This document shows positions 6,958-59,647 of a stretch of DNA of 64,000 nucleotides, one piece after another. The stretch lies in the NCBI GenBank assembly GCA_964436825.1, contig CAYTEO010000003.1:64679-128678 (forward strand), read 5' to 3'. The DNA is from an uncultured Fibrobacteraceae bacterium. GTDB taxonomy: Bacteria; Krumholzibacteriota; Krumholzibacteriia; LZORAL124-64-63. Within the stretch, counting starts at the first letter, position 1. Every line of letters starts with the position of its first letter. The notes beneath the pieces were generated by a model, which made no database searches, was not told where the DNA came from, and saw only the letters and a program-made list of their open reading frames with translations. Made by a program: the position numbers and the translations under genes.

Positions 6958-6986
6958 AACCTAGAAGCGCCCACCGGGGATGTCAA
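6958..6986 (-). promoter_or_regulatory. Strong sigma70-type promoter for the basic protein gene
   Basis: Minus strand TTGACA-N17-TAGGTT in a locally AT-rich intergenic region. Confidence 0.7.
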
Positions 6987-7010
6987 CAATGATATAAAGC
7001 GGATCCGGTA

Positions 7011-8649: not shown

Positions 8650-11600
8650 TCACTTGACGAGGGTCAACTTCATGGTCCTGGCGTCGCCGCCGGAGACGGC
8701 GCGCAGGAAGTAGACGCCGCTCCCGAGACGGCGTCCCGCGTCGTCGCGCCCGTACCAGGTCCAGCTGTGCCAGCCCGGCGTCGTCACACCGGCCTGGAGG
8801 CGCCGGACGCGTCGGCCGAGGACGTCGAAGATCCCGACCTCCAGCGGCACCGCAGTCCCCTCGCCGGGGACGTACAGCTCGATGCGGGTGACCGGGTTGA
8901 ACGGGTTCGGCACGGCCGGCCGGAGCGTCAGGGCGGCGGGTGGACGCGGTGTCTCGACCGCCGTCGTGCTGGGATGCCGGAAGACTCCGTCACGCGTGTT
9001 GCTGCCCCGGAACGTCGGCCAGGGGAGCTTCGTCCCGTCGACCGGGTACGGCATGTCCCAGACGTGGACCAGGAAGTCCCAGCCGGCATAGACGATGTCG
9101 ACGTCCCTGTCCCCGTCGAGGTCGCAGATGACCGGTGCGGGACGAATGGGACCGCCCAGGGTCATGGGGAAGCCCTCCACGTAGGTCCCGTCGGCGTTCC
9201 AGGCATAGAGGTTGTTGGGGGTCTCGACGTTGCTGCCGCCGATCCCGAAGATGATGTCCAGGCTGCCGTCGCCGTTGATGTCCCCCACGACGGGACTGGA
9301 CTCCGAGTTGCCGGGCACGTACTGGGGCCAGCCCGGCAGCGCCTGCCCGCTGGTCCCGCCCGCGATGTCGGTGTCGATGATGTAGACCAGTCCGGTGAAG
9401 GTGGTCGCGGCGGTGCCGTGGATCTCGACCGCCACGATCTCCAGTTCGCCGTCGTCGTCGAAGTCGCCGACGGCGGGGCTGGGACAGGTCACATCGCCGT
9501 TGATGCTCTGCGCCTCGAACGGGATGGGGAATCCGGGGTAGTGCGTCCCGTCCGGCTCCAGGACGTGGAGGGTGTCGTCCTCGGAGACGAAGACGATCTC
9601 CCAGGTCCCGTCGCCGTTCAGGTCGGCCACCGTCGGGCTGCACATGATGCTGCCGCCCCCGCCGGTGGCGTAGGGGAAGCCGGGAGGCTGGGTGGTGTCC
9701 GCCTTGAGGGCGTAGAGGTAGTTCTGCGCATTCCACCCGTAGCGGGTGCCGAAGATGATCTCCCGCGCCCCGTCGCCGTCCAGGTCGAACAGCGCGGGGG
9801 AGCTGCGGTTCCACTCGGCCCACGGCAGCACGTCGCGGACGTAGAAGGGACCGTTGGTCGACGGGTCACCGTCGCCGTCGAGCAGCTCGGTGCCGTCCAC
9901 GTGCCAGACCAGGGTCTGCCCGCCCAGGTTGTTGGCCACGATCTCGGGTTCACCGTCCCCGTCGACGTCGCCGATCGCCGGCGTCGCCCAGATCCAGTGG
10001 TTGCCCGTGGACTGGGGCCAGCCCGGCAGCTCGGTCCCGTCCCAGCGCAGCACGTGCATCAGCCTGGCGTCGCGATCGGCGCAGACGATCTCGTCGCCGG
10101 GAACGCCGTCCAGGTCCGCCAGGGCGATCCCCATGGGCGTGAACGTCCCGTCCAGGTCGGTGATCGGACCGGCGGTCTGGGAGTCGTGGTCGCCGTCGAA
10201 CAGCTCGTTGCCGCCGGCGTCGAAGACGTAGATCTCGTCGGCGGCGATGACGATGTCCAGGACGTGGTCGCCGTTGACGTCGCCGACGGCGCAGTGGCTG
10301 CTCGTCTCCACGGGCAGCGGCAGCGGGAAGTCGCCGGCCTCGGGCGGTGCCGTGCTCTCGGAGATCGGCTGCGACCAGAGTCCCTCGACCAGGGAGCTGT
10401 CGACGGCGGCGATGCGGTAGTAGTAGCGGCTCAGGGTCGCCAGGCCGTCGTCGGCGAAGTAGGCGATCCCCTCCAGCAGGTCGGCGTTGGCCCGCTGGTA
10501 GGGACCACCCTCGCTGGTGCTGCGGTAGACGTTGTACCCCCGGACATCGCCCGCCACCGGCGTCCAGCTCAGGGCGATGATGGTCGGTCCGAGCGACGTG
10601 TTCGCCGTGGGCTCTTCGGGCTGGGCCGGCGGTCGGATCTCGAAGTCGTGGCGGAAGGTCCGCCCCTCGGCGTCGGTCACCACGAACCAGGCCGACCGGT
10701 CCAGCGCGGTGTCGGCCACGGCGAGCGAGGCCATGGCCATCCCCGACGATTCCTGCAGCGTCGCGAGATCGGGGTAGGTGATCACCGAGTCGTAGATCGT
10801 CACGTTGGGATTGTCGCTGCGCAGCCTGGCCACCAGGCCGCCGGCGGTGCCGGCGCCGTAGTTCTTCAGCCAGAGCTGGATGGCGACCCGCTCTCCCGCG
10901 TCCAGGCCACCGTCCCCGTCACCGAAGTACTGGTCGTACCACGAGAGCGCGAACGGCACGACCTCGGGGCCCACGACGGTCGCCGTCCAGGCGCTGGGCC
11001 ACTGGTCCGCGCCGTCGCTGGCGACCCAGCGGAGGGTGACGAGCGTCCCGTCGGGCACGTCGGCCGCCACCTGGACGAGAGCCGGATCCTGCGCCGTGGC
11101 GGTCCCCCCCGGCGAGACGTTGCCGACCACCAGGTTGGGGTCGGTCACCGTGATCCCGGCGGCGGTGCACGTCAGGAAGGCCGTCACGCCGACGGCGCCT
11201 CCTCCCCCCGTGTCCCGGAAGGTCGGCAGCAGGGCCACCGTCTCCCCGGCATCGATCCGTCCGTCGCCGTTCCCCTGGCTGCCCAGGGTCCCGTCGTCGA
11301 CGACGGTGACCGCGTCGACGGCGAGGGTCGTTCCCGGCGAGACGACGGTGATCTCCCCCTCGGCGGGCTCGAGATTGTCCCCGACGACCGTCACGGAGAG
11401 GGTGCCCGGCGCCGCCAGCACGACGGGGATGGTCACCTGGCCGGCCGCGTCGGTCGTCCCGGTGGCGTAGACGCTGCCGGTCATGGCCAGGGTCACCAGG
11501 GCATCGGGAACGGGGGAGCCGCCGGCGGTGACCGTGACGCTGACGTCCTGTTCCCCCGTGTCCAGGGTCCCCGGCGCGGTGACCGCCACCGCCCGGGGAA

Positions 11601-13524
11601 CGGTCGACCACAGGCGGAGGGCCGGATCGCCGAGGACGGTGTAGTTGAAGTAGGTCCAGCGCTCGAAGCTGCGGGCGTTGGCCTGGGCGAGCCACGGGAG
11701 CATCCCCGCCACGACGGTGTCTCCCAGGCGGAGGTTCTGCTCCTGGTAGAGCTGGCGGAAGAACTCGAACTGGAAGCTGTTGGCCGTCGTCGGGAAGGCC
11801 TCCCGGCTGGCCCCGATCGAGACGACCGACCCGCCCTGGTGATTCTGGATCATCCGCTCCATCAGGCACGAGTAGTCGAAGGCCGCCGACGCGCAGTTCA
11901 GGGCGTACATGACGAACGGGTGCGGGTTGACGAGGTTGTCGGCGTCGGCGACGGTGAAGTTGGCGTCGTTGACCTCCATGACGTAGAAGTACCCGTGGCC
12001 GATCTGGTCGACGATGTTGTAGTGGCCCGTGTCGATGCTGTCGATGACGGCCTGCCGCGTCTCGGGGACGGCCCCCGGGTAGAGCGGCACGCCCAGCGTG
12101 TCGGTGGCGGCCCAGGACTCGTACAGGCGGGCGGTCGTGACACCGGCGGGGACCAGCAGGCTGTCGTGGATGGACTCGGCGAAGTCGGCCCCGTCGAGGG
12201 TGGGCACACCCTCGTCGTCCTCGAACAGGACCTCCGCCGCGAACAGGAAGCGATTCGTCCAGTCGCTTCCCGCGGGTGCGCTCTCGTAGGCGATGACCTT
12301 GTCGACGAACGCCTGGGCATCGGCGACGTTGCTCACCGGCGCCCGGCCGCAGAAGACATCGCTGGCGAGATCGACATCGTCACCCGGCGTGTAGACGCTC
12401 AGGTAGGGCTCGCCGAAGAGGTCGTCCCCGTCCGCGTTCCAGTTCCCGTCCAGACAGGAGTAATAGAGATCCGTCGGGATGTCGGTGTGTCCCCCGGGGG
12501 GGTAGAAGGTGCTGTAGGCGTACCGGGCGGGGATGATGTCGGTGTCCCCCCCCAGCAGGAGATACTCGATCCCCCAGCGCTCGTAGGCCTCCCGGATGAA
12601 CATCCGGATGGTCTCCTGGAGATCGACACCCTGCCTGTAGTTCTCCCTGATCCACTCCACCGTCACGACGACGGCGGGCAGCCCGTGGGCGGTGTGATAG
12701 TCCGCCAGGGACTGGAAGACGGGGGCCAGCTCGTCGCTGGTGACGATCAGGTAGCTCACGGCGCTCCCGCTGAGGCTGGGCGTCTTGTCGGGGTCGAACC
12801 CGGTGTCGGCCTCCGGCACGATCTGCCCGTCGTCGCGGCGGTACCCGGGCAGGGCCTCGGGATTGGCCACGACGGAGCGCAGCAGCCGCTCGGTGCGCTC
12901 GCGCTCCCCGGGCACGAACCGGCGCCGGACGGCCATCCGGTCGACGGCGGGGACCCGGTCGCCGGTGATCGCCACCACGCGGTAGCGGGTCATGACCTCG
13001 AGAACGGGATGGTCGGCATCGACGTCCCCCACCACCCTGACGGGGAAGAGGGTCGCCCCGAGCAGACGATACCCACGGAAGGTGTGCACCCCGCCGAAAC
13101 GTCCCCAGCGCGCCGGGAAGACCCCTTCTTGCGCCTGTTCCGTTCCCTCCCAGGTGACGGGGACGCCGCGGGACGTCCGCTGGGCGAGCGCCAGCCCCAG
13201 CGGTGCCGGTGCCTTCAGTCGCACGACCTCGAGCGGGACGATCTCGATGTCGACGACCGGCAGTTCGGGATCGATCAGCAGCTCGAGATTGACCACGGGC
13301 AGGGCCGGCTTGCCGGTCTCGGCGAGCTGGTGGCCGCCCGCCAGGACGGGAACGACCCCGCCGCCGGGTGCGCGTTGCCAGGTGATCCCGTCGGCGGCGA
13401 AGGTGCCCTCGTGCAGGACGACGCCCGCGGCGGCAGCGCCGGAGATGGCAACGAGACCGGGCAGGACGAGCAGGGCGAGCAGGAGTCTGGAGCCGATACG
13501 GCGAGGATGGAATGACGAGTTCAT
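8650..13524 (-). CDS. Secreted C25 (gingipain-like) cysteine peptidase with Ig-like, FN3, FG-GAP/VCBS repeats and C-terminal FlgD-Ig/T9SS-like domain (paralog 1, 1624 aa)
   Basis: Signal peptide; propeptide; YLLLGGD, TDLYYSCLDG, GRAP; His in QIGHG and Cys in ALNCASAAFD; YTVLGDP; many D(L/V)(N/D)GDG repeats; tail LRPAVPNPFNP...GIFDVLGRRVR...W.GRDDAGRRLGSGVYFLR. Confidence 0.9.
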   Translation of the reverse strand: MNSSFHPRRIGSRLLLALLVLPGLVAISGAAAAGVVLHEGTFAADGITWQRAPGGGVVPVLAGGHQLAETGKPALPVVNLELLIDPELPVVDIEIVPLEVVRLKAPAPLGLALAQRTSRGVPVTWEGTEQAQEGVFPARWGRFGGVHTFRGYRLLGATLFPVRVVGDVDADHPVLEVMTRYRVVAITGDRVPAVDRMAVRRRFVPGERERTERLLRSVVANPEALPGYRRDDGQIVPEADTGFDPDKTPSLSGSAVSYLIVTSDELAPVFQSLADYHTAHGLPAVVVTVEWIRENYRQGVDLQETIRMFIREAYERWGIEYLLLGGDTDIIPARYAYSTFYPPGGHTDIPTDLYYSCLDGNWNADGDDLFGEPYLSVYTPGDDVDLASDVFCGRAPVSNVADAQAFVDKVIAYESAPAGSDWTNRFLFAAEVLFEDDEGVPTLDGADFAESIHDSLLVPAGVTTARLYESWAATDTLGVPLYPGAVPETRQAVIDSIDTGHYNIVDQIGHGYFYVMEVNDANFTVADADNLVNPHPFVMYALNCASAAFDYSCLMERMIQNHQGGSVVSIGASREAFPTTANSFQFEFFRQLYQEQNLRLGDTVVAGMLPWLAQANARSFERWTYFNYTVLGDPALRLWSTVPRAVAVTAPGTLDTGEQDVSVTVTAGGSPVPDALVTLAMTGSVYATGTTDAAGQVTIPVVLAAPGTLSVTVVGDNLEPAEGEITVVSPGTTLAVDAVTVVDDGTLGSQGNGDGRIDAGETVALLPTFRDTGGGGAVGVTAFLTCTAAGITVTDPNLVVGNVSPGGTATAQDPALVQVAADVPDGTLVTLRWVASDGADQWPSAWTATVVGPEVVPFALSWYDQYFGDGDGGLDAGERVAIQLWLKNYGAGTAGGLVARLRSDNPNVTIYDSVITYPDLATLQESSGMAMASLAVADTALDRSAWFVVTDAEGRTFRHDFEIRPPAQPEEPTANTSLGPTIIALSWTPVAGDVRGYNVYRSTSEGGPYQRANADLLEGIAYFADDGLATLSRYYYRIAAVDSSLVEGLWSQPISESTAPPEAGDFPLPLPVETSSHCAVGDVNGDHVLDIVIAADEIYVFDAGGNELFDGDHDSQTAGPITDLDGTFTPMGIALADLDGVPGDEIVCADRDARLMHVLRWDGTELPGWPQSTGNHWIWATPAIGDVDGDGEPEIVANNLGGQTLVWHVDGTELLDGDGDPSTNGPFYVRDVLPWAEWNRSSPALFDLDGDGAREIIFGTRYGWNAQNYLYALKADTTQPPGFPYATGGGGSIMCSPTVADLNGDGTWEIVFVSEDDTLHVLEPDGTHYPGFPIPFEAQSINGDVTCPSPAVGDFDDDGELEIVAVEIHGTAATTFTGLVYIIDTDIAGGTSGQALPGWPQYVPGNSESSPVVGDINGDGSLDIIFGIGGSNVETPNNLYAWNADGTYVEGFPMTLGGPIRPAPVICDLDGDRDVDIVYAGWDFLVHVWDMPYPVDGTKLPWPTFRGSNTRDGVFRHPSTTAVETPRPPAALTLRPAVPNPFNPVTRIELYVPGEGTAVPLEVGIFDVLGRRVRRLQAGVTTPGWHSWTWYGRDDAGRRLGSGVYFLRAVSGGDARTMKLTLVK

Positions 13525-13737
13525 CGGTTGCTTCCCCCCGTGGACCGGTTGGCCACCGGCCGTTGTCGAAGACGATGTTCGCTGGCGTCCGCGGGATCGT
13601 CCCGGGACGGCGACCGTACCTTCTTGCGCGCGATCGTCGGAGTATGCGCCATAGCCAAGTGTTGCGGTCGTCCTCCCGGCGAGATGGAAAGAAGGATCGA
13701 TGCACCGGCGACGGATGGCAGGCCACCGGGTTTGACC

Positions 13738-13766
13738 ATTATACGGGAACTCACACGGCCGGACAA
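13738..13766 (-). promoter_or_regulatory. sigma70-type promoter for C25 paralog 1 (long leader)
   Basis: Minus strand TTGTCC-N17-TATAAT, about 210 nt upstream of ATG 13524. Confidence 0.7.
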
Positions 13767-13804
13767 GGGGGTCTGCCCCTCTCCCGCCGCCGCGCGAGAA
13801 GCCG

Positions 13805-16800
13805 CTATCGGACCAGGACCATCCGCCCGGAGTCCTCTCCCACCGGCGTCACCAGCCGGTAGAGATAGACCCCGCTGGCCAGGGAACGGCCCCGGGCATC
13901 GTCCCCGCGCCAGCCGACCGTGTGGCGTCCGCCGGCAAGCTGTCCGTCGACGAGCGTACGTACCAGCCGGCCGCCGAGATCGTAGATGGAGAGCTGGACG
14001 CGTCCCCGGAAGGAGGCGGGCAGTGCGAACTCGATGGTCGTGGCCGGATTGAACGGGTTGGGGTGGTTGCCGAGCAGGACCGGTCGTCCAGGTGGCACCG
14101 TCCCGTCGCTGCCGGTGATGGTCGGATCCTGCAGGCTGCCCGTTCGCTGGGCCGTGCCCTGGAAGGTGGGCCACGGCAGCAGTTCGGCTCCCGCCATGCC
14201 GGGCAGGTCCCAGACGTGAACGGCCAGTCCCCAGCCGGCATAGGCCAGCTCGATGTCGCCGTCTCCGTCCAGGTCGGCCAGGGCAGGCGTCGAGCGTCCC
14301 GGTCCCGCCAGGGACAGGGGGAACCCCTTGACGACCTGTCCGTCGCCCTGGAAACCGTAGATCAGGTTGGGAACGGCGTCGTCACCGCCCCCCACGGGGA
14401 AGATGATGTCCACCATCCCGTCGCCGGTGACGTCCCCCACGATGGGCGATGCCTCGGAGTTGCCCTCCAGCGACTGTGGCCAGCCGGCCAGCTCGACGCC
14501 GGTGCGGTCGATGACGTGCAGCTCCGACTCCATCTCCGAGATGGTGGACACGGCGACGATGTCCAGGTCCCCGTCCCCGTCCACGTCGGCCAGCGCCGGC
14601 GAGGGGCAGGAGATCCCGTACTCCTTGTCGTTGGCCGTGAAGTGGATGGGGAAGGGCGGAACCTCCTTGCCCGCCGTGTCGACGACGTAGAGCAGGTCGT
14701 CCTCGGTGATGAAGACGATCTCCGGCTGCCCGTCCTGGTTCACGTCGCCGACCGCCGGCGAGCAGAGGACCTGGCCGCCGTAGCCCAGGTCGATGGGCCA
14801 GCCGGCCGGCTGGCTCCCGTCGGCGCGGAAGCCGTAGAGCCACTGGCTGGTCCAGGAGGTGATGCGCGTGGGGAAGACGATCTCCCGGATGCGATCACCG
14901 TCCAGGTCGACCAGGGCCGGCGAGGCGAAGCTGTACCACTCGCCCGGCGTGACGTGGAAGACGCCGCTGGTGGACGGGTCGTCGTCCCCGTCCAGCAGTT
15001 CCGTGCCGTCGGCGTGCCAGGCATAGGTGATCCCGTTGACGTTGGTGACGACGACCTCGGGGGAGCCGTCCCCGTCGACGTCACCGACGGTCGGCGCCGT
15101 CCAGCTCCAGTTGCTCATCTGGCGGGGCCAGCCCGGCGCGACCGTGCCATCGTGCTGGAAGACGTAGACGGACTTGTCGGTGCGACAGCAGGCGACGATC
15201 TCCAGGCCCGGATCGGCGGTCAGATCCCCCAGGGAGACGCCGGTGGGACTCCAGCTCTTCCCGCTGCCCGCCAGCGGGCCGACCGTCAGGGTGTCGTTGT
15301 CCCCGTCCCGCAGCTCCGTGCCGTCCCCGCGCCAGACGTAGATGGCGTCGGCGGCGGTGACGACCTCCGGGGCCCCGTCCCCGTCGATGTCGCCGACGGC
15401 GATATGGCTGGAGGTCTCCGCGCCCATGGCCTGCGGGAACCCGGCGATCTCCCCCGGCAGCGTGTCGACGAAGTAGGTGCTGGAGCGGCGTCCCAGCATC
15501 CCGGACGAGTCGACCGCGCAGATGCTGTAGAAGTAACGGGTCATGGGGGCCAGGCCGACGTCGTGGTAGAAGGCGCTGGTGATGGGCCGGAGCGTCAGCT
15601 GGTCCCAGGGACCGTTGGGCAGCAGCGACCGGTAGACGTAGTAGCCGCGCAGCTCGTCGTCCTGCAGGGGGACCCAGGTCACCATCGCCTCCCCCGGCGC
15701 GGGGGCGGAGAACTCGCCCAGGGTGACCTGGTCCGGGCGGATCAGGTGGAAGCGGTGGGTCCAGCTGTGCCCCACCTCGTCGGTGATCTCCAGGACGGCC
15801 TCGAATATCGGGTCGATGGCGGCGAAGGAGACCAGGAACTCTCCTTCCATCTCCGCCGTCCCGAGGGAGGGAACCGCCTGCCAGGAGGCGTCGCCGGCGA
15901 AGATCGTCACGCCCAGGGAGGACTGGAGCTTCCCGGTCAGGGGCGTCGTGGCCCCCCAGCCCTCGTTGCGGACGGAGAAACTGACCCGGATCGGCTCGTT
16001 CGCCTCCGGCACGCCGTCGCCGTCGCCGTAGGGGTAGTCGTTCCAGGTCATCTGGTCGGCGACGATGCGCGGCGCGGTGACCGGGACGACCAGGGACTGG
16101 TGGTAGGCGATCTCGCCGGAGTCGCCGTCGAGTTCCAGGTGGAGGTCGGTCCTGTCCGGCCAGCTGGAGGGCAGCGAGACCAGGATGCCGCTGGACAGCA
16201 GCGAGACGGAGTCCCCCTTGGCGAGGGCGGGGACCCAGGCGTACGTGGACAGGATCTGCACCCCGTCCGGGGAAGCGATGGTGACCGACAGCGGGGACGA
16301 CATGGCCGCGCCACCCACGTTGACCAGCGCCACGTCCAGGGCGACCGTCTCCCCCGAGTCGGCCCGTCCGTCGCCGTTGCCGACCGTGGAACCGGTTCCG
16401 TCGTCCCGGATGCCCAGCAGGACGGCCTGCAGGATGGGCGGCGCGCTGCTGACCGGCAGGGTCCGGACCACGGGGACCGCGTCGGGGGCGGTGACCGTCA
16501 CCGTCACCGGCGCATCGCTGAGCAGGGTGAGGGGCAGGACGGCCTGGCCGGTCGCGTCGGTCAGGCCGTAGGCATAGGCCCCGTCCGGCTGGGAGGCGCA
16601 GACGGTGGCACCGGTCACCGGCAGGCCGTCCTCTCCGGTGACCGCCACCGGGAGATCGACGGCGCCGGGAGCCAGGGTGTCGGGCAGCGAGACGACCAGC
16701 GGCGCGGGAGCACGACTCCAGACCTGCAGGCTGGGATCGCCGATCAGTTCCATCGTCAGGTGCGTCCAGCGCTCCACCGTGTTGCTGGCCGTGTTGGCCA

Positions 16801-18646
16801 CGTAGTACTGCTTGCTCCGCTCGACGGCCTCGCCCAGCGTCCCGACACGCTCGTAGTAGATGGCCTGGAAGAAGATGCGCTGGTACTTCGACGCGGTCGT
16901 GGGGAACGCCGCCCGCGAGAGGCCGATCGAGGCGACGGCCCCACCGGCGGGGTTGGTGACGAACCGCTCCAGGATGCAGTTGACGTCGATCGCCGCCGAG
17001 GCGCAGTTCAGGTTGTTCAGGATGAAGAGGTGGTCGTTGACCAGGGACGACGCGTCGGGAAGCTGGAGTGTCCCGTCGCCTACCGACATGTCGTAGAAGA
17101 ACCCGTGGCCGATGTGGTTGACCAGCCCGTAGTTCCCGCTGTTCATGGCAGCCATCACTCCGGACTTGGTCTCCTGGACGGAGCCGGGCCAGAGCTGGTA
17201 GGACTCGTAGTACCTGTCCGTCGTGACGGGCTGGCTCGCGAGGATGCTGGAGATGATCTCCTCGCTGTGCGCGGCGCCGTCGTCGGCGATCGTGTCGCCG
17301 GGGCTGTAGTCGCTGGGGAACAGCACCTCGCTCATGAACAGGATCCGACCCAGCCGATCGTTCACGTCGTCCTGCTCGTAGGCCTGGACCTTCCCGGTGA
17401 AGACGTCGACCTCGGCCGGCGTGCGCACCGGGGCCCGCCCCACCAGCAGCTCCGCCTCCAGGTCGGCGCCGTCACCCTGGTCCCAGCTGCTGATGTAGGG
17501 CTCGCCGGGGACGGCGTCGTGGTCCGCGTTCCAGTCGCCGTCCAGGCCGGCGTAGTAGCAATCGGCGGGAATCTCGGTCCCCACGCCGGTGGGATAGAAG
17601 GAGCTGAAGAGCATCCGCGTGGGAACCACGTCCACGTCGCCGCCCAGCAGGACGAACTCGGTGCCCCAGAGGTTGTAGGCGTCGGTCAGGAACTCCCGGA
17701 TGGTGGCCGGCAGGTCCTCGCCCATGGGATAGTGGTCGCGGATCCAGGAGATCGTCCGCACGACGGTGGGCACCCCGCGCGCCGTCTTGTGGTCGGCCAG
17801 CTGCTGGAAGGCCTCGGCCAGCTCGTCGGTGGTGACGATGACCATGCTCACCGGCGTCCCCTCCAGCGAGGGGGACGACGTCGGTGCGAAGGCGTCACCC
17901 GCCCAGCTCGTCAGTTCCGGCACCAGGTAGGCATCCAGGGCCTCGGGATTGACGATCCTGCCGTCGGCGAGCAGCTCGCGGGCCGGATCGCGGCGCCGGC
18001 GCCGGGGACGGGGGTGCGTGTCCGGGTCGTCCGCCAGCAGCACGGTGACACGGAACCGTTCGGCCAGGACCAGCTCGCCGCCGTCGTCGTCGCCTTCCCA
18101 GCGCGCCGGCAGCAGGCGCACGTGCGCCAGGGCGATCCCGTGGCGCCAGCCCGTCCCCAGCAGGCGTCCCCACGTACTGGTGTCGGGGGGCACGGCGACC
18201 ACGCCCCCGTCGCCGGCGACCAGGGGCGCGATCCGGTGAGGTGGCGGCAGATCAGCCAGGCGACGGGGAGAAACCGGTTCGATCGACACGCCGCTGGCGA
18301 TGGTGCCCGGGGGCAGGACGATGGTGACGTCGTGGGCGGGCAGATCCCAGCCGCCGACACCCTCGCGCGCGACGGCGCCGGGGAAGACGATCCGGGTCCG
18401 GCCGGCGGGGTCCTGTTCGATCCGCGCCGGGCCCGGCAGGGAGACGTCGTAGCCGAGCCGACGGCCGGTGGCCCCCAGGGACTCCCCGGCCGCCAGGAGC
18501 AACAGGACGATCAGGATAGCGACGCGACCGACCCTGGAAGGACAGGGGCGGGACTGCCACGCCGGCTGGAAGCGGTCACGCGTTGTCGTTTTCAATGTCA
18601 CGGGCCTTGTCGACCGGCCTGCTGGCCGGGGCGAGGTGTCCTCCAA
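13805..18646 (-). CDS. Secreted C25 (gingipain-like) cysteine peptidase with the same multidomain architecture (paralog 2, ~1600 aa; start codon uncertain)
   Basis: FVLLGGD, PADCYYAGLDG, VGRAP; His in HIGHG and Cys in NLNCASAAID; ELIGDP; FN3 (VTW.P...RGYYVYRS); FG-GAP repeats; tail LGNHPNPFNP...IYDLGGRLVR...W.GDDARGRSLASGVYLYRL. Confidence 0.9.
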   Translation of the reverse strand: MEDTSPRPAGRSTRPVTLKTTTRDRFQPAWQSRPCPSRVGRVAILIVLLLLAAGESLGATGRRLGYDVSLPGPARIEQDPAGRTRIVFPGAVAREGVGGWDLPAHDVTIVLPPGTIASGVSIEPVSPRRLADLPPPHRIAPLVAGDGGVVAVPPDTSTWGRLLGTGWRHGIALAHVRLLPARWEGDDDGGELVLAERFRVTVLLADDPDTHPRPRRRRRDPARELLADGRIVNPEALDAYLVPELTSWAGDAFAPTSSPSLEGTPVSMVIVTTDELAEAFQQLADHKTARGVPTVVRTISWIRDHYPMGEDLPATIREFLTDAYNLWGTEFVLLGGDVDVVPTRMLFSSFYPTGVGTEIPADCYYAGLDGDWNADHDAVPGEPYISSWDQGDGADLEAELLVGRAPVRTPAEVDVFTGKVQAYEQDDVNDRLGRILFMSEVLFPSDYSPGDTIADDGAAHSEEIISSILASQPVTTDRYYESYQLWPGSVQETKSGVMAAMNSGNYGLVNHIGHGFFYDMSVGDGTLQLPDASSLVNDHLFILNNLNCASAAIDVNCILERFVTNPAGGAVASIGLSRAAFPTTASKYQRIFFQAIYYERVGTLGEAVERSKQYYVANTASNTVERWTHLTMELIGDPSLQVWSRAPAPLVVSLPDTLAPGAVDLPVAVTGEDGLPVTGATVCASQPDGAYAYGLTDATGQAVLPLTLLSDAPVTVTVTAPDAVPVVRTLPVSSAPPILQAVLLGIRDDGTGSTVGNGDGRADSGETVALDVALVNVGGAAMSSPLSVTIASPDGVQILSTYAWVPALAKGDSVSLLSSGILVSLPSSWPDRTDLHLELDGDSGEIAYHQSLVVPVTAPRIVADQMTWNDYPYGDGDGVPEANEPIRVSFSVRNEGWGATTPLTGKLQSSLGVTIFAGDASWQAVPSLGTAEMEGEFLVSFAAIDPIFEAVLEITDEVGHSWTHRFHLIRPDQVTLGEFSAPAPGEAMVTWVPLQDDELRGYYVYRSLLPNGPWDQLTLRPITSAFYHDVGLAPMTRYFYSICAVDSSGMLGRRSSTYFVDTLPGEIAGFPQAMGAETSSHIAVGDIDGDGAPEVVTAADAIYVWRGDGTELRDGDNDTLTVGPLAGSGKSWSPTGVSLGDLTADPGLEIVACCRTDKSVYVFQHDGTVAPGWPRQMSNWSWTAPTVGDVDGDGSPEVVVTNVNGITYAWHADGTELLDGDDDPSTSGVFHVTPGEWYSFASPALVDLDGDRIREIVFPTRITSWTSQWLYGFRADGSQPAGWPIDLGYGGQVLCSPAVGDVNQDGQPEIVFITEDDLLYVVDTAGKEVPPFPIHFTANDKEYGISCPSPALADVDGDGDLDIVAVSTISEMESELHVIDRTGVELAGWPQSLEGNSEASPIVGDVTGDGMVDIIFPVGGGDDAVPNLIYGFQGDGQVVKGFPLSLAGPGRSTPALADLDGDGDIELAYAGWGLAVHVWDLPGMAGAELLPWPTFQGTAQRTGSLQDPTITGSDGTVPPGRPVLLGNHPNPFNPATTIEFALPASFRGRVQLSIYDLGGRLVRTLVDGQLAGGRHTVGWRGDDARGRSLASGVYLYRLVTPVGEDSGRMVLVR

Positions 18647-18705
18647 GCCCCCCTGTGGCTGTTACCAGCTCCGGGCAGTCTCCCTCCACCCGACTGGAGA
18701 CCATG

Positions 18706-18734
18706 ATCCTAACATACGGTCAACTCGACGTCAA
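18706..18734 (-). promoter_or_regulatory. sigma70-type promoter for C25 paralog 2
   Basis: Minus strand TTGACG-N17-TAGGAT with a TGn extension. The -35 contains the stop codon of the upstream gene. Confidence 0.6.
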
Positions 18735-26603: not shown

Positions 26604-26631
26604 GAGTTCCTCCAGTTCAGATTGTCCGGCA

Positions 26632-26654
26632 GATTATGCATTATGCGCACAATC
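26632..26654. promoter_or_regulatory. Inverted repeat in the glnA leader (candidate operator)
   Basis: GATTATGC-N7-GCACAATC (7/8 complementary), just downstream of the predicted glnA start site. Confidence 0.4.
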
Positions 26655-26672
26655 AGCATGTCATAATAACGT

Positions 26673-26701
26673 ATTCTAGCCGACTATTGGACATTTGTCA
26701 G
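26673..26701 (-). promoter_or_regulatory. sigma70-type promoter for glnA
   Basis: Minus strand CTGACA-N17-TAGAAT. Confidence 0.6.
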
Positions 26702-26756
26702 CTCAAATTTGCCGATCTTGTCAATTTTTCATGCCACCGACGCTCCCTGCCCGCCA

Positions 26757-32551: not shown

Positions 32552-32592
32552 GTCGTCCTCCCGTCGTCGCCCCGGATCGGGATGTGCAGCGC

Positions 32593-32621
32593 ATCATAAG
32601 GGGCCGGGGTCGAGGGGACAA
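32593..32621 (-). promoter_or_regulatory. sigma70-type promoter for suhB operon
   Basis: Minus strand TTGTCC-N17-TATGAT. Confidence 0.65.
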
Positions 32622-32770
32622 CACCCGGCTGTCGTCGCTTGCCCGATTCCCCGCCGCCGGACCGCCGGCCGTCCGGCGATCCCCGTCCCGCAAGGCCCTC
32701 CCCCGGGCGATATCGCGCCGGTGCGCCTTGCCGGCATCCGCGACTTGCCTCGCACGCGATCACTGCACAA

Positions 32771-32786
32771 TGTTATCTGCAAAACA
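32771..32786. promoter_or_regulatory. Rex-like palindromic operator upstream of rnfC
   Basis: TGTTA-tctgca-AAACA, with flanks shared with the nuoA upstream site. Confidence 0.5.
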
Positions 32787-32849
32787 GAAGACGGCGTAAT
32801 TTTAACAGGCGCCGGATACACTTCTGCTTCCACTGCTGGAGCCTGTGAC

Positions 32850-34187
32850 ATGACACCGCGAAGCTTCCGGGGTGGGGTCCATCCGCCGGAATACAAGGAG
32901 CTGACCAGGGACAAACCCATCGAGCCCATGCCCCCGGGTGCGAGGCTCCTCGTCCCGCTGTCCCAGCACCTGGGCCGGCCGGCGACCCCCGTGGTCGGCA
33001 AGGGGGATGTCGTCCGGCGCGGACAGCCGCTGGCCGAGAGCACCGGTCCGATCTCCTCCCCCGTCCACGCACCGGTCGACGGCAAGGTCCTGAAGCTGGC
33101 CAAGGGACCCGTGGCCGGCGGGACGCTGGCCGAGATGGTCGTCATCGAGCCGGAGCAATCCCCCCCGGCCGATGACGGGCGCCCGCCGTTGCCGCCGCTG
33201 GAACCGGAAGCGGTGACCGGCGACCGGATCGTGGAACGCGTGCGCGAGGCGGGCATCGTCGGCCTGGGCGGCGCCGCCTTTCCCACCGCCGTCAAGCTCA
33301 GCCCGCCGCCGGACAAGCCCATCGACTGGTTGCTCATCAACGGCGCCGAGTGCGAGCCCTACCTCACCCGGGACTACCGCCTGATGCTGGAGCGGACCGC
33401 CGACCTGGTCGAGGGCATCCGGCTGCTCGGCCGGGCGCTCGGCGACGGGGTCCGCCTGGGGATCGGCATCGAGGACAACAAGCCGCAGGCCGTCGCGGCC
33501 CTGCGCGAGGCCGCGGCCGGACGGGGATGCCGGATCGAGATCTTCGAGCTGCGGACCAAGTATCCCCAGGGCGCGGAGAAGATGCTCATCCATGCCGCCA
33601 CGGGGCGCAGCGTGCCGCCGGGGTCCCTGCCCATGGAGGTGGGCTGCGTGATCCAGAACGTGGGCACCGCCCTGGCCGTCCGCGACGCGGTGGTGCTCGG
33701 CGAGGTGCCCTGCACCGCCACCCTCACCGTGAGCGGTCTGGGTGTCGTGGAGCCCAAGAACCTGCAGGTGCCCATCGGCACGCCGCTGCGCGACGTCCTG
33801 GCGTACTGCGGCGGCGTCAGGGCCACGGCCAGGCGCGTCGTGGCCGGCGGTCCCATGATGGGCTTCGCCGTCCACTCCCTCGACGTACCGGTGGTCAAGG
33901 CCACCAGCGGCGTGCTCGTGCTCACGGAACAGGAGCTGCGAGCACCCGCCGAAACCGCCTGCATCCGCTGCGACAGGTGCGTTGCCGCCTGCCCCATCGG
34001 CCTGCTGCCCCGGCGCCTGGCCCGGCTGGCCAGGCTGGGCCGGTTCGCCGAGGCACGCGCCCAGGGCGTCGAGCACTGCATGGAGTGCGGCACCTGCGCC
34101 TTCACCTGCCCCGCCCACCAGCCCCTGGTGCAGTACCTGCGCCTGGGAAAGAGGGGCGTCCGCAACCTGCCCCGGGAGGGAGGCTGA
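32850..34187 (+). CDS. rnfC: Rnf complex subunit C
   Basis: SFRGGVHP, GIVGLGGAAFPT, INGAECEPYLT.D, KYPQGAEK, GGPMMG, CIRCDRCVAACP, CMECGTCAFTCP. Confidence 0.96.
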   Translation: MTPRSFRGGVHPPEYKELTRDKPIEPMPPGARLLVPLSQHLGRPATPVVGKGDVVRRGQPLAESTGPISSPVHAPVDGKVLKLAKGPVAGGTLAEMVVIEPEQSPPADDGRPPLPPLEPEAVTGDRIVERVREAGIVGLGGAAFPTAVKLSPPPDKPIDWLLINGAECEPYLTRDYRLMLERTADLVEGIRLLGRALGDGVRLGIGIEDNKPQAVAALREAAAGRGCRIEIFELRTKYPQGAEKMLIHAATGRSVPPGSLPMEVGCVIQNVGTALAVRDAVVLGEVPCTATLTVSGLGVVEPKNLQVPIGTPLRDVLAYCGGVRATARRVVAGGPMMGFAVHSLDVPVVKATSGVLVLTEQELRAPAETACIRCDRCVAACPIGLLPRRLARLARLGRFAEARAQGVEHCMECGTCAFTCPAHQPLVQYLRLGKRGVRNLPREGG

Positions 34188-37119: not shown

Positions 37120-37851
37120 ATGATCGACCGGCGATCCTTCCTCAAGACGGTGCTGCTCGGCGGCGTGGCCTTCGGGACCGGCCTGGCACTGGGCCGCGTC
37201 GGAGCGCACCACGCCGGCCCCCGCCTGCTGCTGCACGGGTTCGTGCCGGCCGACGAGAACCTGGTACGGGAGACGCTGCGGGCCTTCCTGGGCCTGGACG
37301 ACGGCCGTCTGCCCGTGCCCGTCGTGGATGCGCCCGACGGCTGGCGGCCGCAGCTGGCGCGCATGCTGCGCGACGCCGCGCCCCGCTACACGCACGACCA
37401 CCGCCGCCTGCTGGCGATCCGGGTCTCGCCGCTGGACCACCCGCTGCCCGCGGACCTCCTGCTGCAGATGGACGGTCGCGTGCTCGATCCGGACCGGGCC
37501 CCCGCCCGGCGGCTGGTGGCCCTGCGCGAGCGGTTGCTGGGACGGCGGGCCGCCGTCGCGGTCAGCTGCCGCCTGGAGGACCGCCCCGACCCGCTGGCCG
37601 GCGGGCGCGTGCTGGTCATCGAGACGGAGAACGGACTGCAGGACCGCATCCCCCTCGACGGGCGGCGGCGTCTCCTGGAGCTGCGCGGTCCCGCGGGGCT
37701 GACCCGGGTGGAAACCACCGCGGACGGCGCCCGCGTGGCCGGGTCCTGCTGCCGTCACGCCACCTGCCGCCTGCAGGGCGACGTATCGCTGCCCGGCGAG
37801 CTGATCGCCTGCGCGCCGAACCGCCTCGTCCTGCACGTGGAGACGGCCTAG
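37120..37851 (+). CDS. Tat-signal protein with C-terminal NusG domain II-like domain
   Basis: MIDRRSFLK twin-arginine signal; C-terminus ARVAGSCCRHATCRLQGDVSLPGELIACAPNRLVLHV fits the NusG_II pattern. Confidence 0.75.
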   Translation: MIDRRSFLKTVLLGGVAFGTGLALGRVGAHHAGPRLLLHGFVPADENLVRETLRAFLGLDDGRLPVPVVDAPDGWRPQLARMLRDAAPRYTHDHRRLLAIRVSPLDHPLPADLLLQMDGRVLDPDRAPARRLVALRERLLGRRAAVAVSCRLEDRPDPLAGGRVLVIETENGLQDRIPLDGRRRLLELRGPAGLTRVETTADGARVAGSCCRHATCRLQGDVSLPGELIACAPNRLVLHVETA

Positions 37852-37858
37852 GAACGCC

Positions 37859-38875
37859 ATGGAACGGACAGGCCAGGACAACGGCAAACGTCGCCACCGG
37901 TCGCGGTCCGGGCTGCCGGTGGCGCTGGTCTGCCTGCTGGCCGGGTACCTCCTGGCCAGCCGCCCGGCACCCCCCGGTGAACCGGAACTGCTGCGCCTGA
38001 CGCGTCCGGCCATGGGCACGCTCGTGGAGATCGTGGTGCCCGCCCCGCGCGACGAGGCCCGTCGCTCCCGCGTGCTGGAGGCCATGCGGGACGGCCTGGC
38101 CGAGATCGCGCGCCTGGACTCCCTGTTCTCCACGCGACTGCCCCCGCCGGTGCAGACCCCGCCCGCGGAGCGCGCCAGGGAACGGTCGGACCTGCTGGAG
38201 CTCGGCCTGGCGGTGATGCGCGAGAGCGGAGGGGCCTTCGACCCGCGCCTGCGCCCCCTGATCGATCTGTGGGGATTCGACGGGGATGCGCCCGCCGTAC
38301 CCGATCCCGACACCCTGCGGGCGGCCGTGGCCCGGCTGCAGGCACTCGGGGCCCCGCGCAGCGTGGGGGACCTGGCGGCCGCGGCCGACCTGCTCCACTT
38401 CGGCGCCTGGGCCAAGGGCTACGCCGTGGACAGGGCGACAGCCGTCCTCCGGAGCCGCGGCGTGACCGCCGCCCTGGTCAACGCCGGCGGCGAGATCCGC
38501 TGCTACGGCCGCGACTGGACCGTGGGCGTGCAGCACCCGCGCCTGCCCGGCGCCCTCGTGGCTTCGCTGCACCCGGGCACCGCCGCCGTGGCCACCAGCG
38601 GCGACTACGAGCGGTTCTTCGCGCAGGACGGCATCCGTTACCACCACCTGCTCGACCCGCGCACGGGCATGCCCGCTCGCGGCTGCCGGAGCGTCACCGT
38701 GCTGGCCGGCTCCTGCGCGCGCGCCGACGCCCTGGCCACGGCCGTGTTCGTGCTGGGACCGCGGGAAGGCCTGGCGCTCGTGGAACGCCTGCCGGGCGTC
38801 GAGTGCCTGATCGTCGACACCGCCGGGAACCGCCGCGACAGTTCCGGAATGGCTGCGTACCTGACCGCCGAATGA
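37859..38875 (+). CDS. apbE: FAD:protein FMN transferase
   Basis: AMGT, GAFDP, FGAWAKGYAVD, LVNAGGEI, W.VGVQHP, AVATSGDYER, YHHLLDPRTG, ADALATA. Confidence 0.95.
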   Translation: MERTGQDNGKRRHRSRSGLPVALVCLLAGYLLASRPAPPGEPELLRLTRPAMGTLVEIVVPAPRDEARRSRVLEAMRDGLAEIARLDSLFSTRLPPPVQTPPAERARERSDLLELGLAVMRESGGAFDPRLRPLIDLWGFDGDAPAVPDPDTLRAAVARLQALGAPRSVGDLAAAADLLHFGAWAKGYAVDRATAVLRSRGVTAALVNAGGEIRCYGRDWTVGVQHPRLPGALVASLHPGTAAVATSGDYERFFAQDGIRYHHLLDPRTGMPARGCRSVTVLAGSCARADALATAVFVLGPREGLALVERLPGVECLIVDTAGNRRDSSGMAAYLTAE

Positions 38876-40415: not shown

Positions 40416-40443
40416 TTGACATCCCCGTGCATGATCTTAGCTT
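40416..40443 (+). promoter_or_regulatory. sigma70-type promoter for nfuA-like gene
   Basis: TTGACA-N16-TAGCTT. Confidence 0.5.
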
Positions 40444-40473
40444 CTGCTGGTACACACAACCGGAGGAAACCGT

Positions 40474-56951: not shown

Positions 56952-58658
56952 TCACCGGTCCAGTTCCCCGGCGATGATGTTGATACTGCCCAGGATGGCG
57001 ATCGCGTCGGGCACCATCAGCCCCTTGATCAGGTCCGTGTACGCCGAGAAGATGGGGAAGCAGGGCGGGCGTACCTTGAGCCGGTAGGGCCGGCCGCTCC
57101 CGTCGGAGACGCAGAAGAAGCCCAGCTCTCCGTTGGCTCCCTCGCCGAAGCCGTAGCCCTCCCCGGCGGGGACGCGGATCCCCTCCATGATCAGCTTGAA
57201 CTGGTTCATGACCCCCTCGATGCTGCCGTAGACCTTCTCCTTGGGCGGCAGCGCCACGCGGGGGTCGTCGACGAGGATCGGCCCGTCGGGCAGGCCGCGC
57301 GAGAGGGCCTGGCGGATGATCCGGGCGCTCTGGCGCATCTCCTCGATCCGGACCATGATCCGGTCGCGGGTGTCACCGTTCTCCCCCACCGGCACGTCGA
57401 AATCGTAGTCCTGGTAGCCGAGGTACGGGGCGGCCTTGCGCAGGTCGAATCCCAGGCCGGTGGCGCGCAGGCAGGGACCGGTGAAGCCGCGGTCGAGGGC
57501 CTCCTCGGTGGTCAGCGCCCCGATCCCGACCGTGCGGTCCAGGAAGATCCGGTTGCGGGCCACCAGGCCGGTCACCTCGCCGATGGCGACATCGAGCTTC
57601 TGCAGGTGCTTCTCGACCGCCTGCTCGAAACCGTCGAAGACGTCGTGGGCCAGGCCGCCGATGCGGGCGTAGTTCGTCGTCAGGCGCGAGCCGCACAGCG
57701 GCTCGATGATGTCGTAGTAGATCCCCTCGCGGATGTTGTAGAAGTACCAGTAGTTGGTCAGGGCGCCGATGTCGACGAGGTTCGTGCAGACGCAGACGAG
57801 GTGGTCGATGATCCGCGCCAGCTCGCTGGTGACGACCCGCACGACCCGGGCCCGGGGCGGGATCTCCACCCCCAGCATCTTCTCCACGGCGGCGGCGTAG
57901 ATGTTGTTGTTGAGCATCGCCGAGACGTAGTTCAGCCGGTCCGTGTAGGGCATGACCTGCGACCAGGTGTGATCCTCCGCCTCCTTCTCGAAGCAGCGGT
58001 GCAGGTAGCCGATCTCGGCCCGGGCGTCGACGATCGTCTCGCCGTCCAGCAGGCACTCGATGCGCAGGGCGCCGTGGGTGGCGGGGTGGCTCGGCCCCAG
58101 GTTGACGACCATCAGGTCGGACGGATAGCCCACCCGGTCGGCCTGCTCGGCGCGCCGGGACGCGGCCAGCACCTCCTCGTCGCTGAACAGCTTCTCCGGC
58201 GTGGAGAGGAACTGCCCCTGCTCGATGGGATAGTCCTTGCGCAGGGCGTGCCCCTCGAACTCGTGGTGGGTTAGGATCCGCCGCAGGTCGGGATGGCCGG
58301 CGAAGCGGACCCCGAACAGGTCGAAGACCTCGCGCTCGTGCCAGTCGGCGCTGCGGTAGAGGTGGGTCACCGTGGGGACCGGCTCGCCCTCGGCCACGTC
58401 GGTCTTGACGATCAACCGCTGGTTCCGCGAGACCGAGCGCAGCAGGTAGTTGACCTGGAACCGCTTCGCCCGGTCTGGATAGTCGACGCCGACGACGTCG
58501 GCCAGCAGCTCGCACCCCTCCCGCTCCTTGAGGTGCTGCACCACCAACGGTACGTCCGCCGGTGCCACGGTGACCGACTCGTCCCCGTGCTGGCTGCCGG
58601 CGGCGAGGATCCTCTCCCCGAACTCGGCTCGCAGGCTCTCGATGAGTTTCTGGCTCAT
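56952..58658 (-). CDS. nuoCD: NADH-quinone oxidoreductase fused subunit C/D
   Basis: NuoC part (DYP..RF.VNY.L, WHEREVFDLFG.RF.GHPDLRRIL) continues without a stop into NuoD (NLGPSHPATHG.LR, GYLHR..EK, DRLNY, GELDR). Confidence 0.96.
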   Translation of the reverse strand: MSQKLIESLRAEFGERILAAGSQHGDESVTVAPADVPLVVQHLKEREGCELLADVVGVDYPDRAKRFQVNYLLRSVSRNQRLIVKTDVAEGEPVPTVTHLYRSADWHEREVFDLFGVRFAGHPDLRRILTHHEFEGHALRKDYPIEQGQFLSTPEKLFSDEEVLAASRRAEQADRVGYPSDLMVVNLGPSHPATHGALRIECLLDGETIVDARAEIGYLHRCFEKEAEDHTWSQVMPYTDRLNYVSAMLNNNIYAAAVEKMLGVEIPPRARVVRVVTSELARIIDHLVCVCTNLVDIGALTNYWYFYNIREGIYYDIIEPLCGSRLTTNYARIGGLAHDVFDGFEQAVEKHLQKLDVAIGEVTGLVARNRIFLDRTVGIGALTTEEALDRGFTGPCLRATGLGFDLRKAAPYLGYQDYDFDVPVGENGDTRDRIMVRIEEMRQSARIIRQALSRGLPDGPILVDDPRVALPPKEKVYGSIEGVMNQFKLIMEGIRVPAGEGYGFGEGANGELGFFCVSDGSGRPYRLKVRPPCFPIFSAYTDLIKGLMVPDAIAILGSINIIAGELDR

Positions 58659-58693: not shown

Positions 58694-59200
58694 CTAGGCC
58701 TCGGCGCTGTTGCGGTGACGCGCGGCGGCGGGGACCAGGCCCTCCTGCTGGACCCGCTCCTGCAGGGTCACCAGGGCGTGCATCAGGTTCTCCGGCGTCG
58801 GCGGGCAGCCGGCGACGTAGTAGTCGACCGGGATGATCCGGTCGATCCCCTGCAGGGTCCCGTAGTTGTTGTAGAAGCCGCCGCTGGAGGCGCAGACTCC
58901 CATGGCGATGACCCACTTGGGCTCGCACATCTGGGCGTAGATCGTCTTGAGGATCGGCGCCTGCTTGTAGGAGATCGTGCCGGCGACGATCAGCAGGTCG
59001 GACTGGCGGGGCGAGAACCGGACGGCCTCGGCCCCGAAACGGCTGATATCGCTGTAGGAGGAGACGACGCTCATGAACTCGATGGCACAGCAGGCCGTCC
59101 CGTACGGCAGCGGCCAGAGGGAGTACTTGCGCCCCCAGTTGACCGCCTGCCGCAGGCGCGTCGTCAGGTAGTTGCTCGGGCTGTCCAGTGCTACTGCCAT
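58694..59200 (-). CDS. nuoB: NADH-quinone oxidoreductase subunit B
   Basis: GTACCAIEFM, SPRQSDL, PKWVIAMG.CASSGG, PVD.YV.GCPPTPE. Confidence 0.97.
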   Translation of the reverse strand: MAVALDSPSNYLTTRLRQAVNWGRKYSLWPLPYGTACCAIEFMSVVSSYSDISRFGAEAVRFSPRQSDLLIVAGTISYKQAPILKTIYAQMCEPKWVIAMGVCASSGGFYNNYGTLQGIDRIIPVDYYVAGCPPTPENLMHALVTLQERVQQEGLVPAAARHRNSAEA

Positions 59201-59565
59201 TCGAGCCCGCCTTTCCGCCAGACGTAGATGTAGCCGACGACCAGGATGACCAGGAAGAACCCCATCTCGCCCAGGGCGAACGCTCCCTGCCCCGCCGCCA
59301 GCAGGCGGCGATAGAGGACGACCCACGGGTAGAGCAGGACCCCTTCCAGGTCGAACAGCAGGAACAGGAGGGCGACCAGGAAGAAGCGGACGAAGAAGCG
59401 GACCTGGGGCGAACTGCGCACGGGGATGCCGCACTCGTAGCCGGTGCGTTTCAGGGCGGTGCTGCGGCGCGGCCCGAGCCAGTAGCTCAGGACCAGGAAC
59501 AGCAACGACAGCACGAGGGCGAGCGCCACGACCAGCAGCAGCGGAACGTACTGTTGAGGGGCCAT
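59191..59565 (-). CDS. nuoA: NADH-quinone oxidoreductase subunit A
   Basis: YECG, VRFFLVALLFLLFDLE, W.KGGLEW. Start MAPQQY at ATG 59565. Confidence 0.95.
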   Translation of the reverse strand: MAPQQYVPLLLVVALALVLSLLFLVLSYWLGPRRSTALKRTGYECGIPVRSSPQVRFFVRFFLVALLFLLFDLEGVLLYPWVVLYRRLLAAGQGAFALGEMGFFLVILVVGYIYVWRKGGLEWQ

Positions 59566-59618
59566 GCCGGGGCTCCTTGCCTTCCGCCGAACCGCCGCCG
59601 CGGCGACGGTCCCTGCAA

Positions 59619-59634: not shown

Positions 59635-59647
59635 GAAGGTCGGCCCA

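Follow-up and report, generated by a model that had tools for sequence, protein, structure and literature searches.

A block shared by the complex I and Rnf operons in an uncultured member of the Krumholzibacteriota: a proposed promoter-operator, most likely read by a Rex- or CRP-like regulator

Results

Gene context of the two intergenic regions

The window analysed here, a stretch of 64,000 nucleotides from a 265 kb contig of a hydrothermal-vent metagenome, carries the operons for the Rnf complex and for complex I on opposite strands. Each begins at a divergent intergenic region, one lying between an inositol monophosphatase gene and rnfC, the other between nuoA and a class IV aminotransferase gene that starts with TTG at 59730 and is syntenic in 36 relatives. 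RnfC and NuoCD are 71% and up to 78% identical, respectively, to their counterparts in the closest genomes, which are labelled Candidatus Krumholzibacteria or Krumholzibacteriota, and the only public sequencing runs holding this sequence are three DNA hydrothermal-vent metagenomes. The features on which the analysis turns are listed below, O1 and O2 being the two putative sites into which we divide the shared block.

32593-32621, minus strand: sigma-70-like promoter TTGTCC-N17-TATGAT of the divergent inositol monophosphatase/CutA/Na+-H+ antiporter operon
32745-32774, plus strand: inferred rnf promoter, with -35 box TTGCCT (32745-32750), a spacer of 17-18 bases and -10 box (C)AATGTT (32768/9-32774)
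32769-32808, plus strand: rnf-side copy of the block, AATGTT-N8-AACAGAAG-N1-CGGC-N2-AA-N2-TTAACAG (pattern search, alignment and runs test)
32771-32786, no strand: putative O1 dyad of the rnf copy, TGTTATCTGCAAAACA (TGTT-N8-AACA)
32792-32808, minus strand: putative O2 of the rnf copy, CTGTTAAAATTACGCCG, a half-site with the extended -10-like TGTTAAAAT
32850-34187, plus strand: rnfC, head of rnfCDGEA-NusG_II-ApbE-rnfB-RseC
59191-59565, minus strand: nuoA, head of nuoA-B-CD(fused)-E-F-...-N, an operon running down to 45800
59617-59657, plus strand: nuo-side copy of the block (pattern search and alignment)
59619-59634, no strand: putative O1 dyad of the nuo copy, TGTTGAGCTCGTAACA, which reads TGTTACGAGCTCAACA on the nuo strand
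59648-59656, minus strand: nuo extended -10 box TG-T-TAACGT (hexamer 59653-59648), CTGTTAACGT
59670-59675, minus strand: nuo -35 box TTGACA, 16 bases upstream of the -10 hexamer
59683-59711, plus strand: promoter-like TTGCCG-N17-TACCGT for the divergent class IV aminotransferase gene

Several aspects of the surrounding genes were noted in passing. A NusG_II-domain protein and an ApbE flavin transferase are encoded between rnfA and rnfB, followed by RseC (37120-38875), and the order rnfA-NusG_II-ApbE-rnfB-RseC is kept in all relatives examined (L003, L007, L011 and L139; L numbers designate individual loci). The nuoC and nuoD genes are fused into one gene of 568 residues (56952-58658, minus strand), as they are in 80/80 related loci. 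Two tandem paralogous genes of ~1,600 residues (8650-18646, minus strand; Peptidase_C25, FG-GAP, FlgD_ig) have the appearance of gingipain-like proteins, either secreted or cargo of type IX secretion. Nitrogen-regulator sites may be present where glnA and a PIN-PhoH gene diverge, in 140 A/T-rich bases (26607-26745) with tandem TTATGCA/TTATGCG, an ATTGT...ACAAT inverted pair and repeated TTGTCA.

A block shared by both regions

An A/T-rich block of ~40 bases, set in a window of ~71% G+C, lies upstream of both operons, and the two strings and coordinates reported in a preliminary description of this DNA are present as quoted, both on the plus strand. The rnf copy reads AATGTT-ATCTGCAA-AACAGAAG-A-CGGC-GT-AA-TT-TTAACAG and the nuo copy AATGTT-GAGCTCGT-AACAGAAG-GT-CGGC-CC-AA-CG-TTAACAG. 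The TGTT-N8-AACA core was rightly described as having Rex/CRP spacing, being equal to TGT-N10-ACA in both copies. As the block is on the plus strand at both loci, it runs forward relative to rnfC and in reverse relative to nuoA, so that it cannot be called upstream of both operons in one and the same sense.

The similarity between the copies is real and far beyond chance. TGTT-N8-AACAGAAG has two exact matches in the window, where 0.22 would be expected even with up to two mismatches allowed; TTAACAG occurs twice in the 64 kb, each time within a copy of the block, and two of the three occurrences of TGT-N10-ACA in the 64 kb are the block copies. When the rnf block was compared with the whole window by composition-aware local alignment, the nuo block scored 43.4 bits and the runner-up 28.9, and a score of 43.4 bits was reached by 0/5000 composition-preserving shuffles, which bears out the earlier report of a ~40-bp pattern common to the two intergenic regions; generic match/mismatch alignment does not single out the block, whereas composition-aware scoring does. 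The copies agree in 28 of 41 columns, clustered in blocks (runs permutation test, p = 0.004): identity is 100% in the contact-like blocks but drops to one position of eight in the palindrome's 8-base spacer. Identical blocks beside a diverged spacer argue for selection on specific positions rather than for the even decay of a recent duplication. The flanks kept in both window copies (CTTC, TTG and GCCG) are asymmetric. The block is a real, selected element, which we propose to be a promoter-operator.

A longer homology between the two intergenic regions was considered and rejected, the G+C-rich "leader" match being equalled or beaten at many places in the window; this flank and leader similarity is low-complexity noise. 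The available 72 kb of this genome contain two copies of the block, with no further copy in ~8 kb of new flank of the source contig (L138). A metagenome-wide scan for AATGTT-N8-AACAGAAG-N1-2-CGGC, run on a collection that did not include the window's own contig, returned 42 matches, none of them with the TTAACAG half-site; they come mostly from low- to mid-G+C DNA and all look like chance.

The complex I promoter and its relatives

Read on the minus strand, the nuo region has the order TTGACA-GGGTCGTGATCTC-TGTTAACGT-TGGGCCGACCTTC-TGTTACGAGCTCAACA-TTGCAG, and the TTAACAG/AACGTT part of the block is, on this opposite strand, the nuo extended -10 box. The nuo copy has on the minus strand every component of a sigma-70/sigma-A extended -10 promoter, namely a -35 box, a spacer of 16-18 bases and TGn followed by TAnnnT. 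For comparison, the regions upstream of nuoA were extracted from 80 nuoCD loci of species-representative genomes of the same phylum. TTGACA-N16-TAnnnT recurs in ~50 of these relatives at 81-156 bases from nuoA, as against 110 in the window, and this layout identifies the 3' part of the block (..AA..TTAACAG) as the nuo extended -10 box reversed; CGGC is the G+C-rich stretch directly after that box. The 3' part, previously regarded as an extension foreign to a standard Rex box, is therefore accounted for by the extended -10 box and a perfect TTGACA 16 bases upstream of it. The O1 palindrome would lie ~10-30 bases downstream of the predicted nuo transcription start.

At nuoA, ~60 related genomes have one of two arrangements: TGTTATTTTTGCAACA overlying the -10 box, or, 20-22 bases downstream of it, a 16-base TGTKA-N6-nMACA dyad; in ~900 kb of related DNA, sites of this sort are nearly confined to nuoA promoters. 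The arrangement in 27 distinct genomes is TTGACAC-N11-yCTGTTATTTTTGCAACAra (L012-L091, ~95-150 bases upstream of nuoA, for example L035 2940-2980). Its ~19 bases yCTGTTATTTTTGCAACAra, which include TGTT-N8-AACA, are nearly invariant, in contrast to a freely varying promoter spacer and leader. The main-clade nuo promoters, TGT-TATTTTTG, contain a perfect TAnnTTTG, and the invariant promoter of the 27 genomes joins a canonical -35 box to this Bacteroidetes-type -7 box. In the sub-clade of the window (L012-16, L063, L013, L024, L019 and L027) the -10 box is TGTKAnnnT, and a separate 16-base TGTKA-N6-nMACA dyad sits 20-22 bases past the TGT of the -10 box, its ends kept and its centre varying (TGTGAAAATCTTGACA, TGTGAAATCCTCAACA or CGTTGAAACGTTAACA), which is the two-unit layout seen in the window. 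A second group of genomes (L056, L058, L060, L062, L069, L070, L072 and L075) has CTTGGC-N18-TTATCAAT at nuoA.

A search of the window and 802 kb of related DNA gave 28 occurrences of TGTT-N8-AACA: 25 at nuoA promoters, one per genome, the two window copies, and one in coding sequence. The palindrome belongs to a class of dyads kept across Krumholzibacteriota at complex I promoters, and the block combines the complex I core promoter with this palindrome. The sequence layout, its statistics and the phylum-wide conservation at nuo are matters of direct observation.

The rnf promoter

Seven relatives share a strongly conserved rnf promoter, TCTTTGACTCC-N12-TCTACGTTT, ~50-60 bases before the start codon. 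The rnf promoter of the window, ACTTGCCTCG-N-CACAATGTTAT, aligns with it, and its predicted -10 box is the left end of the block, AATGTT, at the position expected from the seven relatives. The leader in the window is ~22 bases longer than theirs, and the surplus is the O2/TTAACAG half of the block. A TGT-N10-ACA dyad was found at the rnf promoters of 0/7 of these relatives; the link to rnf is therefore lineage-specific, and co-control would be at most a feature of the lineage rather than a conserved regulon. The block at rnf is a novelty of this lineage.

On its minus strand the rnf copy contains a good extended -10 box, TG-T-TAAAAT, with no -35 box (GCAGAA or CAGAAG stands there, with at most 1-2 of 6 matches), and at nuo no -35 box serves AATGTT on its own strand. 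Each end of the block would act as a -10 box at one of the two loci and yet is kept at the other, where it has no -35 partner; this indicates that something besides the sigma factor reads these ends.

Other promoters were noticed during this comparison. An extended -35 block, TTGACATCCCC or TTGACTCCCC, is common to several unrelated promoters (window 6960-6990, minus strand, and 40416-40445, plus strand; the rnf promoters of L003, L007, L011 and L092-L095) and suggests a phylum-specific extension downstream of the -35 box. The promoter TTGACG-N17-(TGT)TAGGAT of a 1613-residue Peptidase_C25/FG-GAP gene (window 18655-18730, minus strand) is followed ~45 bases downstream by an inverted TAACAG, and the TGTTA/TAACA pentamers of the 64 kb window are confined to this promoter and the two blocks.

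Relation to Rex and CRP/FNR operators

The Rex operator (ROP) is TTGTGAA-N4-TTCACAA, with the clostridial form TTGTTAA-N4-TTAACAA. We took as an ROP an 18-base palindrome near TTGTGAANNNNTTCACAA or TTGTTAANNNNTTAACAA and scored sites over the 14 positions of a combined consensus, TTGTKAA-N4-TTMACAA. Both window copies have exactly the dyad geometry of an ROP, TGT-N10-ACA, and score 9/14 (rnf) and 10/14 (nuo), a level also reached in background sequence. Among nuoA promoters, 31/62 score at least 10/14 compared with ~3% of background 170-base windows, and 8/62 score 12/14 compared with 0/3120 background windows; the 62 promoters are related by descent and their counts overstate independence, though the contrast with background remains large. 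Sister-clade nuo boxes (CTGTGAAAATCTTGACAA) reach 12/14, and elsewhere in ~900 kb the matches of at least 12/14 come down to a single odd site within a mobile-element region. The window has the half-sites TGTTA/TGTTG, as against TGTGA/TGTCA in L012. The dyad sites lie at promoter regions of NAD(H)-linked energy genes, namely nuoA and rnfC here and nuoA in >35 relatives.

The literature agrees with the earlier statement that Rex acts at nuo and rnf in other bacteria: Rex binds nuoA promoters, with footprints on nuoA1 (PMC5355995), and a clostridial-type Rex site is predicted upstream of rnfCDGEAB (PMC9600882; motif also in PMC4600107). A rex gene is present in Caldithrix, a bacterium of the FCB superphylum (PMC5317091). 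A search for a rex or CRP/FNR gene, proposed in the preliminary description, found none among the Pfam-scanned ORFs of the window and none by tblastn against the window and ~900 kb of related loci, the queries being B. subtilis Rex and E. coli CRP and the coverage of this genome 64-72 kb. Beside nuoA in the relatives no regulator gene was seen, the neighbours being a class IV aminotransferase, an NYN-domain protein and a TPR protein. As no regulator gene was found and the window copies score 9-10/14, Rex is no more than a plausible candidate for the regulator. The proposal of one redox regulator for nuo and rnf thus holds in part: the dyad is conserved at nuoA, which favours it, while the modest scores of the two copies and the seven rnf promoters without a dyad count against it.

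Sigma-54, LexA, IHF and LacI/Cra-type consensus sequences were compared by eye and rejected, as spacing or key bases misfit. Two further Rex-like matches were recorded. Upstream of the NADH-linked [FeFe]-hydrogenase operon of a relative (L140 1727-1744), TTGTTAAAATTTTACCAG matches the clostridial Rex consensus at 12/14 and has TGTTAAAATT in common with the rnf-side copy; it may be a Rex-type site or merely an extended -10 box, and no rex gene is adjacent to that operon. In the window, ATGTGCAGCGCATCATAA (32582-32599) matches the Rex consensus at 10/14 and overlaps the inositol monophosphatase -10 box; this poor dyad is probably a chance match.

Discussion

We give about even chances to the reading in which the block is a pair of operators overlapping the nuo and rnf promoters and bound by a dimeric repressor. 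This composite promoter-operator would consist of two sites: O1, a true dyad TGTT-N8-AACA, and O2, a half-dyad CTGTTAA-N6-GCCG on the minus strand. Their centres are 21-22 bases apart, or two helical turns, which would put them on the same face of the DNA. At nuo, on the minus strand, the strong promoter TTGACA-N16-TAACGT would have O2 on its extended -10 box and O1 ~10-30 bases inside its leader. The orientation is reversed at rnf, where the AATGTT end of O1 would fall on the conserved -10 position and O2 ~15-30 bases past the expected start. A dimeric helix-turn-helix repressor seated on O1 and cooperatively touching the weaker O2 half-site would cover -10/+1 at rnf and, at nuo, the -10 box and the early transcribed region, blocking the binding or escape of RNA polymerase at both operons, so that a single signal would govern complex I and Rnf. 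On this simplest account the protein would contact both ends of the block and the inner AACAG arm. Rex acts in this manner at respiratory promoters, nuoA1 among them. The 16-base TGT-N10-ACA geometry would suit either a Rex-type NADH/NAD+ sensor or a protein of the CRP/FNR type. Transcription starts, protein binding, repression, and the identity and signal of the regulator are what we infer from the layout of the sequence.

Several observations weaken the case for a repressor. Since TGTTAnnnT is a common form of the extended -10 box in the phylum (instances are the L140 hydrogenase operon and the 18.7 kb promoter of the window), the half-site signal is in part that of a promoter. The dyad arms of the main clade lie on either side of a TAnnTTTG-type -7 box and the start site, and promoter constraint alone could explain some of the invariance. 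The asymmetric conserved flanks count against a symmetric dimer, which would not need them. It is also conceivable, though unlikely, that a lineage-specific regulator belonging to neither the Rex nor the CRP/FNR family reads the 19-base nuo element and its two-site derivative, and that this genome has formed a reversible promoter-operator cassette whose opposite ends would serve as the -10 box for nuo (minus strand) and rnf (plus strand); Rnf would then be newly wired into the control circuit of complex I.

The two copies are alike in strand and internal order, their similarity runs slightly past the dyad (TTG..GCAGnGAyCG), and the rnf copy holds on the minus strand a near-consensus extended -10 box of the TGTTAnnnT form common in the phylum. 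All this could be read as a directional promoter module, the rnf copy being a second nuo-type core promoter that points on the minus strand toward the monophosphatase operon or a non-coding transcript and not toward rnf. We hold such a module to be rather unlikely: the rnf copy has GCAGAA where every nuo promoter of the type has TTGACA, the monophosphatase gene has a promoter-like site of its own ~170 bases nearer, and the implied leader of ~240 bases matches nothing in Rfam and does not fold significantly. Nor does the module sit well with the wider "leader" similarity being noise, with spacers inside the block that are completely diverged, or with AATGTT falling exactly at the expected rnf -10 position. 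That the resemblance is one of promoters only, with no dedicated regulator and with sigma/RNA-polymerase contact elements that are alike in two strong energy-metabolism promoters, we regard as distinctly improbable. The main-clade element does fit TGn plus TAnnTTTG followed by the start site, TAnnTTTG being the -7 box of the FCB-/Bacteroidetes-type sigma A (PMC9723704), and GCCG after the -10 box resembles a G+C-rich discriminator. Such contacts leave unaccounted for the retention of AATGTT-N8-AACAGAAG ~10-30 bases inside the nuo leader, the inverted copy that retains an unused end, and the variable-centre dyad of the sister clade at its fixed offset of 20-22 bases. Moreover, neither the window's 6.9 kb and 40.4 kb promoters nor the rnf promoters of the seven relatives have a dyad, and only the 18.7 kb promoter has a wider pair, TGTTA...TAACAG, ~45 bases apart.

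Two further readings involve a different kind of recognition. The minus strand of the block has CTGTTAA and CTGTTAC/CTGTTTT 21-22 bases apart, and the nuo leaders of L017, L022 and L030 have TGTCAAC/TGTTATC/TGTCAAC with 10-11 base phasing, as might be expected of direct CTGTTA repeats read by an OmpR/ArcA-type response regulator instead of a symmetric dimer; in E. coli, nuo is repressed by ArcA, a protein that recognises phased TGTTA repeats. With only the inverted pair in the main clade, a G+C-rich stretch devoid of repeats between the two units, and no response-regulator gene near either operon in the window, this reading is highly improbable. A structured leader or riboswitch common to both mRNAs is barely credible. 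Part of the block is transcribed at both loci and the rnf leader allows a hairpin, CAGAAG...CTTCTG/CGGCG...CGCCG, to be drawn, but the two mRNAs would carry opposite strands of the block, and most relatives have the element upstream of the start site. Rfam gave no match for the whole window at the gathering threshold or for 32552-32900 in E-value mode (best E = 6.6), the folds of three possible leaders were not significant against shuffles (z = -0.96, -0.42 and -0.12), and a tRNA scan found no tRNA.

The promoter-operator pair read by a dimeric repressor would be a conventional type of regulation, with no new mechanism; the block most likely binds a Rex- or CRP-like regulator and is a control element of an ordinary kind. 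It probably works like a Rex or CRP-type operator, membership of the Rex family being at the level of a candidate. Overall, the observation made in the preliminary description is upheld and its interpretation in part: the shared element and the dyad spacing stand, while the common orientation and the conserved co-regulon do not.

We know of no cultured, genetically studied member of Krumholzibacteriota and of no account of its transcription signals. The present comparison yields a phylum-level picture of a strong promoter, TTGACA followed after 16 bases by TGTTAnnnT, with a TAnnTTTG-type -7 box in the main clade, together with a conserved dyad at the complex I operon and one lineage in which the block is on the Rnf promoter too. 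Were one redox-sensing repressor to read the block, Rnf (ferredoxin to NAD+) and complex I (NADH to quinone) would be coupled, and a concrete motif would be at hand for regulon reconstruction in metagenome-assembled genomes.

Comparison with known systems

The block resembles several known elements, to different degrees. With ArcA-P direct-repeat sites of E. coli it shares TGTTA-type units on one helix face of a complex I promoter, although here it is an inverted pair that is conserved, and the repeats are 21-22 rather than 11 bases apart. With extended -10 sigma-70 and -7 box promoters it shares TTGACA-N16-TG-T-TAACGT in the nuo copy and TAnnTTTG in the main clade; a plain promoter would leave unexplained the second dyad in the nuo leader and the inverted rnf copy lacking a -35 box. 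CRP/FNR boxes (TGTGA-N6-TCACA) have the same spacing, and the sister-clade TGTGA-AAATCT-TGACA agrees with them at 9/10 core positions, but the window has TGTTA/nAACA half-sites, the available DNA yielded no CRP/FNR gene, and activators of the CRP type less typically occupy repressor-like positions on the -10 box or downstream of it.

Compared with the ROP, the window copies do not keep the outer T/A and inner AA/TT positions and have conserved asymmetric flanks, the rnf promoters of seven relatives have no dyad, and no rex gene was found in the window or the fetched loci. The likeness to the ROP lies in the 16-base TGT-N10-ACA, placed within or just downstream of the core promoters of NADH-linked energy operons, in CTGTTAA, which is 6/7 of the clostridial half-site TTGTTAA, and in the pairing of O1 with the half-site O2, comparable to cydA1, where a full Rex operator and an adjacent half-site have been footprinted (PMC5355995).
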